From a virus (Duplodnaviria; Heunggongvirae; Uroviricota; Caudoviricetes), in the IMG/VR virus record IMGVR_UViG_2721755651_000007: a stretch of DNA of 64,000 bases. One strand, written 5' to 3'. The translations under genes were made by a program, and so were the position numbers. Below are positions 58,669 through 59,076 of the stretch, in pieces. The notes under the pieces are model-generated. The model was not told where the DNA came from. It did no database searches and was given only the letters and a program-made list of their open reading frames with translations. How positions within the stretch are numbered: the stretch's first letter is position 1; every line of letters starts with the position of its first letter.

Positions 58669-59076
58669 ATGAAAAACGAAACCTTCGGTGCTCGCCTCTT
58701 ATACAGGCGAAAAAAATTAAAACTGTCTCAGGCCGCATTAGGTAAGCTGGTCAAAGTGGCTCACGTAACAATTTCTCAATGGGAAAGAGATGAAACACAG
58801 CCAGCGGGGAAGAGATTATTCGCACTGAGCCAGGCGCTTCAGTGCTCGCCGACTTGGCTTCTTTTTGGAGATGAAGATAAGCAACCAGGCGAACCGATCC
58901 CAGATAATCAGCCAGTCAATCTGACAGAAGATCAAAAAGAGTTGCTTCAACTGTTCGACGCACTGCCTGAGTCAGAGCAAAAGGCTCTGTTGTCAGAGAT
59001 GCGTGCTCGAGTTGAGAATTTCAACAAACTTTTTGAAGAACTACTCAAAGCTCGCAAAAGAAGCGCAAATAAATAA
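58669..59076 (+). CDS. cI: CI-like repressor, HTH (XRE) without peptidase domain
   Basis: N-terminal HTH ..LKLSQAALGKLVKVAHVTISQWERDE..; C-terminus helical, no S24 motifs. Confidence 0.65.
   Translation: MKNETFGARLLYRRKKLKLSQAALGKLVKVAHVTISQWERDETQPAGKRLFALSQALQCSPTWLLFGDEDKQPGEPIPDNQPVNLTEDQKELLQLFDALPESEQKALLSEMRARVENFNKLFEELLKARKRSANK

Follow-up and report, generated by a model that had tools for sequence, protein, structure and literature searches.

How can a lambdoid prophage be induced when its repressor carries no peptidase domain? This question is raised by prophage B, one of the two lambdoid prophages (A and B, in the same orientation) present in a stretch of 64,000 nucleotides (IMG/VR record IMGVR_UViG_2721755651_000007; hereafter, the window). 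A previous sequence-only reading of the window indicated that the repressor of prophage A has a LexA-like S24 domain, whereas that of prophage B consists of a helix-turn-helix (HTH) and a helical C-terminus and cannot self-cleave; it was then proposed that prophage B is induced through an antirepressor, encoded by a LexA-controlled Ant-like gene (ant) located between the endolysin and Rz genes. The analysis presented here was computational; it covered domain content, homologies and the predicted fold, as well as synteny and co-occurrence, and LexA boxes were searched for. The explanation that best accounts for the results, to which we assign a probability of approx. 0.7, is that the repressor would be part of a DicA-DicC-type switch, released by the antirepressor Rem or by stochastic flipping, and that the Ant-like gene would be a late passenger.

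The window is DNA from O157:H7 Escherichia coli, and matches many O157 genomes at 100%. Prophage B extends from approx. 20 kb to past the end of the window and adjoins ompW; by sequence comparison it is prophage Sp9 of Sakai, which has also entered the databases as 'PPompW' phages, with a nucleotide identity of 98-99.9% over 24-64 kb. Four of its proteins (the repressor, Cro, Rem and Ant) show 100% identity to Sakai ECs_1765, ECs_1766, ECs_1774 and ECs_1785, respectively. The system is therefore not new, since both the DicA-DicC-Rem module and Sakai Sp9 are already known, and a peptidase-less repressor together with the failure of mitomycin C was published in 2009. In that work, the repressors of Sp4, Sp6, Sp9 and Sp10 were reported to have no peptidase domain (Asadulghani et al. 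2009, PMC2669165), and Sp9 was found to be spontaneously inducible, but not by mitomycin C (PMC2669165); in the presence of this drug, circular Sp9 DNA falls and that of Sp5 rises approx. 300-fold (PMC2669165). What is useful here are corrections, i.e., that the gene located between R and Rz owes its name of 'antirepressor' to similarity of the N-terminal domain only, and that this name is not to be taken as a regulatory link to the repressor; and that Rem, the partner for which this family of repressors has experimental support, is present in Sp9.

The repressor and the Rem homologue of prophage B

The repressor of prophage B showed Pfam matches to HTH families only (HTH_3, E 4e-14) and no match to Peptidase_S24, and an S24 annotation was found in none of the 120 homologues listed. 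The AlphaFold2 model of this protein (36 homologues; predicted local distance difference test score of 87) is all-alpha, with no beta strands; it comprises a five-helix HTH (residues 6-66), a linker, and two helices formed by residues 87-98 and 101-134. The S24 fold is a beta structure. When the model was compared with the PDB using Foldseek, the N-terminal domain of P22 c2 was matched with a root-mean-square deviation of 0.5 Å and 63% identity, in agreement with the 60-63% identity between the N-terminal 68 residues and the DNA-binding domain of P22 c2 (E 1e-21). The full-length analogues were SinR and the repressors of arbitrium phages, which also consist of an HTH and a helical tail and are controlled by small antirepressors; no LexA/S24-like structure appeared among the Foldseek matches. 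A cryptic peptidase fold was thus looked for in the model and by structural comparison, and none was seen. Since no S24 fold is present in the model, the repressor is predicted to be unable to self-cleave. The sequence-only reading was therefore right about the architecture of this protein and its lack of self-cleavage, as it was about the S24 domain of the prophage A repressor, which was recovered by Pfam, and the coordinates that it gave were all correct on checking.

The repressor is 63% identical to DicA from K-12 and 30% identical to GfoR from Gifsy-1, with which it shares the C-terminal motif LLxLFxxLPExE and the match to phrog_5736; residues L95, L99 and P100 are invariant in the alignments, even with GfoR included. 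A Cro/C1-type HTH, a length of approx. 135 residues, a short helical C-terminus with the LLxLFxxLPExEQ motif and no S24 domain are the traits of the DicA/GfoR family, and all of them are found in this protein. DicA and RacR have been placed in the GfoR/GtgR group of Gifsy repressors (PMC3121763). These homologous Gifsy repressors are not cleaved, and small antirepressors under LexA control take them off the DNA (Lemire et al. 2011, PMC3121763). In prophage B, a perfect palindrome that could serve as an operator lies between the repressor gene and the divergent cro-like gene (Table 1). The weaker copies of this palindrome are only suggestive as operators, since the number of sites with three mismatches in the complete window (9 versus 16 expected) is no more than chance.

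In K-12, Rem is encoded next to hokD in the Qin prophage, and it derepresses the DicA-controlled dicBp 165-fold (2023 J Bacteriol, PMC10448788). Prophage B encodes a full-length homologue of this protein, for which the Sakai and FDAARGOS_293 records examined give only the label 'hypothetical protein'; the precomputed annotation PF27490 is present on all homologues of the window Rem. As in Qin, rem is located in the nin region directly downstream of hokD/sok, in a prophage with a DicA-type repressor. This association was also found outside the window, given that the 15 phage-database records with a Rem homologue (15/15) also hold a full-length DicA-like repressor. Likewise, 80 IMG/VR loci, those closest to the query Rem, were fetched, and among the 58 with an upstream flank long enough to be informative, the repressor belonged to the DicA family in 58/58 and to the S24 type in 0/58. 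Four loci that apparently had no DicA-like repressor yielded one each by tblastn, and a fifth ended before the immunity region. In PPompW_EH2246, dicA, dicC and rem are kept, and the portion of its record that was examined contains no lysis cassette; rem is also kept in functional phages such as mEp460_ev081, HannyBb and PhiR42_1. Prophage A, with its S24 repressor, shows the same backbone as prophage B, i.e., hok, X, a gene for a 90-residue protein, DUF968, RusA and Q, X being a BOF gene unrelated to rem. Judged from these sequence comparisons, the linkage of Rem to the DicA-type repressor is strong, and the Rem homologue would most likely be the cognate antirepressor of the prophage B repressor.

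In the IMG/VR loci (L015-L094), Rem proteins that are 88-100% identical to that of the window stand next to four immunity classes of repressor, these being 100, approx. 64, 53 and 27% identical to the repressor of the window. In the repressors linked to Rem, the C-terminal helices are better conserved (63-76%) than the HTH (50-68%) or the linkers (33-56%). Because these helices are the best conserved part among the different classes, this pattern suggests that Rem targets them and that, like GfoA and GfhA, it may act across prophages of different immunity.

The region upstream of rem contains a promoter-like site, whose -10 element is invariant in three diverged loci. LexA boxes were searched with a matrix derived from E. 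coli boxes and validated on the Gifsy-1 dinI site (23.6 bits). No LexA box was found upstream of rem, where the score was 1.6 bits, and the scores upstream of rem in the 80 related loci did not exceed 4.8 bits. No exact CTGT-N8-ACAG sequence was found near rem or ant, nor was a DicA-type operator that could provide feedback control detected near either gene by pattern search. Neither rem nor ant shares an operon with a dinI homologue; only a dinI-like remnant is present elsewhere in the window. The absence of a LexA box before rem fits with an SOS-independent induction and with the failure of mitomycin C to induce Sp9. For the Rem protein of K-12, the inducing signal was stated as not identified (PMC10448788).

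The Ant-like gene of the lysis cassette

The Ant-like gene does lie where it had been reported, flanked by genes with Phage_lysozyme and Rz (Phage_lysis) domains, and it is not a pseudogene, since its 189-residue open reading frame is intact and 100% identical to ECs_1785 and to the ant product of VT2-Sakai. The family is conserved in length (187-190 residues) across Enterobacterales; O157 carries several copies of ant, and in certain O157 strains IS1203 interrupts this gene. The stop codon of ant overlaps the start of the gene for a 49-residue protein (ATGA), which could allow translational coupling, and both genes appear to move as a two-gene unit between R and Rz.

The domain composition of the protein clarifies the origin of its name. 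Over its N-terminal 127 residues, it shares 50% identity with a P22-like Ant (P22_AR_N), the C-terminus corresponds to ORF11CD3, and P22_AR_C is absent according to Pfam. P22-type Ant consists of P22_AR_N and P22_AR_C, and the ant product of the nin region of VT2-Sakai consists of ORF6N and P22_AR_C; the latter architecture is also that of the Phi24B Ant, which speeds derepression (Fogg et al., PMC3064807). As far as domain content goes, P22_AR_C is the sole domain common to the P22-type and the Phi24B-type Ant. On the other hand, P22_AR_N and ORF11CD3 are modules of the domain-swapping 'Bro network' (PMC10111431), and therefore the name 'antirepressor' rests on one shuffled module. The structural model of the Ant-like protein was of modest quality, and the fold search with it gave no informative match. 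STM2616 from Gifsy-1 was considered as a homologue of Ant and rejected, given that no similarity was found and that STM2616 is an ORF6N protein.

According to the sequence-only reading, this protein would be the antirepressor of the peptidase-less repressor, its expression being released by cleavage of LexA. This proposal has some points in its favour, i.e., the gene is intact and conserved, the DNA-binding domain of the repressor is 63% identical to that of P22 c2, which is the target of P22 Ant, and the ant gene of P22 likewise lies inside a late operon (PMC12111858). Nevertheless, the LexA box that was expected upstream of ant was not found in the spacer between R and ant, where the best score was 1.9 bits versus 23.6 bits for the control. 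The same spacer contains no sigma-70-like site, so that ant has no promoter-like site of its own there; structured RNA was not significant in this 270-nt leader (z = -0.31), no Rfam family was matched, and its nucleotide conservation is no higher than overall relatedness predicts. No Arc-like sequence was found in the window, and no Arc- or Mnt-like gene adjoins ant. Moreover, since the gene sits in the late operon, downstream of the Q-like antiterminator, Ant would be made only after derepression.

The distribution of the gene points in the same direction. An identical Ant, in an R-ant-Rz arrangement that includes the same spacer, is present in VT2-Sakai (Sp5) and in many other Stx phages, and the cI repressor of VT2-Sakai has a clear S24 domain (E 7e-29). 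A homologue from Photorhabdus, 78% identical, is located just after Rz and before the terminase genes, in a phage whose repressor has an HTH and a weak S24 match (E 7e-5, just below the Pfam cut-off). Conversely, of the 25 Rem/DicA loci with a flank that extends to the lysozyme gene, only 6 encode Ant. Mitomycin C induces Sp5, whose late region has the same Ant, yet it does not induce Sp9 (PMC2669165), which argues that Ant is not the cognate inducer; the interruption by IS1203 mentioned above also weighs against such a role. Therefore, the Ant-like gene is probably not the inducer, and the proposal of a LexA-controlled Ant is already largely refuted, its remaining probability being very small indeed. 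Of the general idea, what stands is antirepressor-mediated induction as a mode of control for the DicA/GfoR family (PMC3121763, PMC10448788), for which Rem is a better candidate than Ant.

A different role for Ant would be to act late and in trans, binding the repressor of its own prophage or those of neighbouring prophages (S24 types, e.g., that of prophage A), either to lock the lytic choice or to wake co-resident prophages. It is known that non-cognate repressors, lambda cI among them, are also targets of P22 Ant (PMC3064807), and that FsoA from Fels-1 induces Gifsy-2 in trans (PMC3121763); in addition, the position in the late region, within or just after the lysis genes, is kept across genera, and O157 has several copies. 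We consider this role improbable, and infer instead that Ant plays no part in the induction of prophage B.

A model for the induction of Sp9-type prophages

In the model that we favour, the repressor would use its P22 c2-like HTH to bind palindromic operators in the region that separates its gene from the divergent cro-like gene, and it would probably oligomerise through the two-helix C-terminal tail. Given that it has no S24 domain, RecA should not be able to trigger its self-cleavage. The repressor and the Cro/DicC protein would form a bistable switch, and repression would be lifted by two likely routes. The first is stochastic flipping of the switch, which would correspond to the spontaneous induction, or basal excision, of Sp9, by analogy with K-12, where approx. 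1% spontaneous derepression of dicBp occurs independently of Rem and RecA (PMC10448788). In the second, Rem, expressed from a promoter of its own that immediately follows the hokD terminator, would bind the repressor, probably at the conserved C-terminal helices, and release it from DNA, a step modelled on K-12 and Gifsy. Since the rem promoter has no LexA box, this route would not be wired to the SOS response. The Ant-like gene would be a standard passenger of lysis cassettes of the Stx-phage type (S-R-ant-Rz), expressed only once Q-dependent late transcription is under way, and its product would most likely be a late-expressed DNA- or protein-binding accessory protein that has only the N-terminal 'Bro-network' domain of P22 Ant.

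Several observations weigh against this explanation. Both the spontaneous derepression of K-12 dicBp and its induction by urea or heat are independent of Rem (PMC10448788), and Rem may contribute little to the induction that is actually observed. The action of Rem on the repressor is extrapolated from K-12, whose DicA and Rem are only 63% and 73% identical to the proteins of prophage B; the promoter-like site of rem matches the consensus at only 9/12 positions, and many of the 80 IMG/VR loci are related E. coli prophages that do not count as independent. Rem and GfoA show no detectable similarity by BLASTP and fall in different PHROGs, and homology between them was rejected. With regard to Ant, the natural target of P22 Ant is P22 c2, and the N-terminal domain of the latter shares 63% identity with that of the repressor; a literature search for the domain of P22 Ant that binds c2 yielded nothing.

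The first of these observations leads to an alternative in which no antirepressor matters, and induction results purely from chance flipping of the bistable DicA/DicC-like switch, whose balance temperature or urea may shift, with rem as a hitch-hiking relic. The K-12 results, where neither the 1% derepression of dicBp nor the response to urea and heat requires Rem or RecA, agree with this view, as does the fact that Sp9 was described just as 'spontaneously inducible' (PMC2669165). However, Rem is intact and 88-100% identical beside four immunity classes of repressor, the -10 element of its promoter is conserved, the gene is retained in functional phages, and the K-12 protein, when expressed, causes the 165-fold derepression already mentioned (PMC10448788). 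For these reasons, the alternative seems unlikely to us, and we infer that this Rem acts on this repressor.

A broader version of the Rem model can be conceived, in which Rem would work as a master switch, cross-reactive and independent of SOS, for the joint induction of the O157 prophages with peptidase-less repressors (Sp4, Sp6, Sp9 and Sp10 types), and some signal would act at the LexA-free rem promoter behind hok. We offer this version as a tentative one, which is possible and still rather doubtful. The subject is of importance since Sp9-type prophages carry the type III effectors nleA, nleH and nleF, as well as the adhesin Paa, and move between strains without the SOS response. Whatever induces them therefore bears on the spread of virulence genes in enterohaemorrhagic E. 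coli.

Other features of the window and comparison with known systems

The features on which this analysis is based are listed in Table 1.

Table 1. Features of prophages A and B discussed in the text, with their positions in the window.
Feature	Coordinates	Strand	Evidence and remarks
Prophage B immunity repressor, DicA/GfoR family, 135 residues	58669..59076	+	HTH_3 N-terminus and two-helix C-terminal tail
Operator-like perfect palindrome CCTTAG-N6-CTAAGG	58601..58618	.	cro-repressor intergenic region; read from sequence
Weaker palindrome copies	58627..58644 and 59186..59203	.	3 mismatches each (pattern search)
Cro-like regulator, DicC homologue	58365..58592	-	P22_Cro E 3e-13; 83% identical to K-12 DicC; divergent from repressor
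YdaT-family protein in cII position	57830..58381	-	Pfam YdaT_toxin; RefSeq annotation of identical locus
sok antisense RNA	53640..53789		Beside hokD
hokD toxin gene	53487..53642	-	Conserved left neighbour of rem, as in Qin
Intrinsic terminator of hok mRNA	53401..53418	-	Immediately upstream of rem promoter
Sigma-70 promoter-like site TTGAAG-18-TAGAAT	53349..53378	-	Upstream of rem, just past hok terminator
Rem homologue, 85 residues from ATG	53009..53266	-	73% identical to K-12 Rem (E 2e-40); phrog_340 E 5e-22
Q-like late antiterminator (DUF1133)	50702..51244	-	phrog_753 E 4e-74; ant downstream in late operon
Endolysin R	45106..45639	-	Phage_lysozyme E 1.5e-24
Spacer R-ant, 270 nt	44836..45105	-	Same spacer in VT2-Sakai
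'Ant'-like Bro-network protein, 189 residues	44266..44835	-	P22_AR_N (E 1.4e-45) and ORF11CD3; intact
Predicted membrane protein, 49 residues	44120..44269	-	phrog_4906; annotated in L001 and Sakai
Rz spanin	43645..44112	-	Phage_lysis E 5e-50; Rz1 embedded at 43707..43892
Prophage A repressor	11670..12308	+	HTH_3 and Peptidase_S24 (E 8e-13, Pfam); contrast case
Prophage A BOF-fold gene	4641..4985	-	Slot between hok and the 90-residue/DUF968/RusA/Q genes, where B has rem

Other sequences that resemble LexA boxes or their associated genes were observed in the window. The strongest LexA-box-like site is TACTGTAAAAATATCCAGTT, at 50085..50104 on the minus strand, with 24.7 bits, a score that exceeds every shuffle and the Gifsy-1 dinI box. 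This site starts at nucleotide 9 of a DNA methyltransferase gene (49054..50112, Sakai ECs_1780) and is kept in 23/23 related loci, but it is coding sequence, with no clear promoter upstream. The sole perfect CTGT-N8-ACAG of the window (57510..57529) lies inside the O-like replication gene, within an iteron array of TTTTTGGGTGTCTTTG type (57376..57572), and is more likely to belong to the phage origin than to be a LexA site. The dinI-like coding remnant (approx. 16609..16835, plus strand) is 39% identical to Gifsy-1 DinI over residues 8-76; its N-terminus has been replaced, no LexA box was found upstream of it, and it lies outside the regulatory region of prophage B, between the truncated integrase of prophage A (15870..16421) and an IS256-like transposase (16891..17793).

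Although its repressor is of the S24 type, prophage A contains the DicF small RNA at 13952..14003 (+) and a hok/sok locus at 5105..5429 (-); its nin backbone is approx. 85% identical to that of prophage B, and the product of its BOF-fold gene is predicted to be periplasmic. In prophage B there was no match for DicF at the Rfam threshold, though dicB is present. The early region of prophage A is split by an IS3-family element (IS1203/IS629 type) at 7090..8303 (-), which includes an ALIL frameshift pseudoknot (7906..8022). Between prophage A and the cargo end of prophage B lies ISEc8 (IS66-family, 17712..20153), 99.96% identical to the copy in Sakai Sp9. In the late leader region of prophage B, Rfam detected the anti-GcvB small RNA AgvB at 48402..48461 (+) and STnc100 at 48463..48671 (-), just downstream of two prophage tRNA genes (48784..48857 and 48941..49013).

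Small proteins that inactivate a repressor are known from several systems that can be compared with the one of prophage B. Its repressor resembles those of the SinR-SinI and arbitrium repressor-AimX pairs of Bacillus, in that an HTH with a short helical tail is inactivated by a small protein; this likeness is structural only (Foldseek 1b0n, 9sf2 and 9iaq, with 20-25% identity and a high full-length root-mean-square deviation), and is not put forward as homology. Non-cleavable repressors are likewise the targets of the antirepressors Tum, from coliphage 186, and AntC, from N15 (PMC3121763); LexA controls both of these, and no such control was seen for rem or ant. The window Ant is similar to that of the P22 immI region in its P22_AR_N domain and in being embedded in a late operon. 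It differs in having 189 instead of 300 residues and ORF11CD3 in place of P22_AR_C, and in that the Arc, Mnt and sar regulators, as well as a promoter-like site of its own, are absent.

Prophage B also resembles the GfoR/GfoA pairs of Gifsy-1, -2 and -3 from Salmonella, where a small non-cleavable repressor of approx. 136 residues, 30% identical and with the LLxLFxxLPExE motif, is accompanied by a small antirepressor gene, which stands in the nin region between the replication genes and Q, as rem does in prophage B. In Gifsy, however, the antirepressor belongs to a dinI-gfoA-irsA module, where it follows a dinI homologue with a LexA box of 23.6 bits; in prophage B the score before rem is 1.6 bits, hok/sok occupies the place of dinI, and Rem has no detectable similarity to GfoA. 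The closest counterpart is the DicA-DicC-Rem system of Qin in K-12, with which prophage B shares a 135-residue repressor (63% identical to DicA), Cro/DicC (83%), Rem (73%), the hokD-rem order, the divergent dicA/dicC pair, and ydfC and dicB downstream. The repressor belongs to another immunity class, relBE and flxA of Qin are absent, and paa is present; unlike in Qin, which is a cryptic remnant, the module in Sp9 is part of a nearly complete, excisable prophage.
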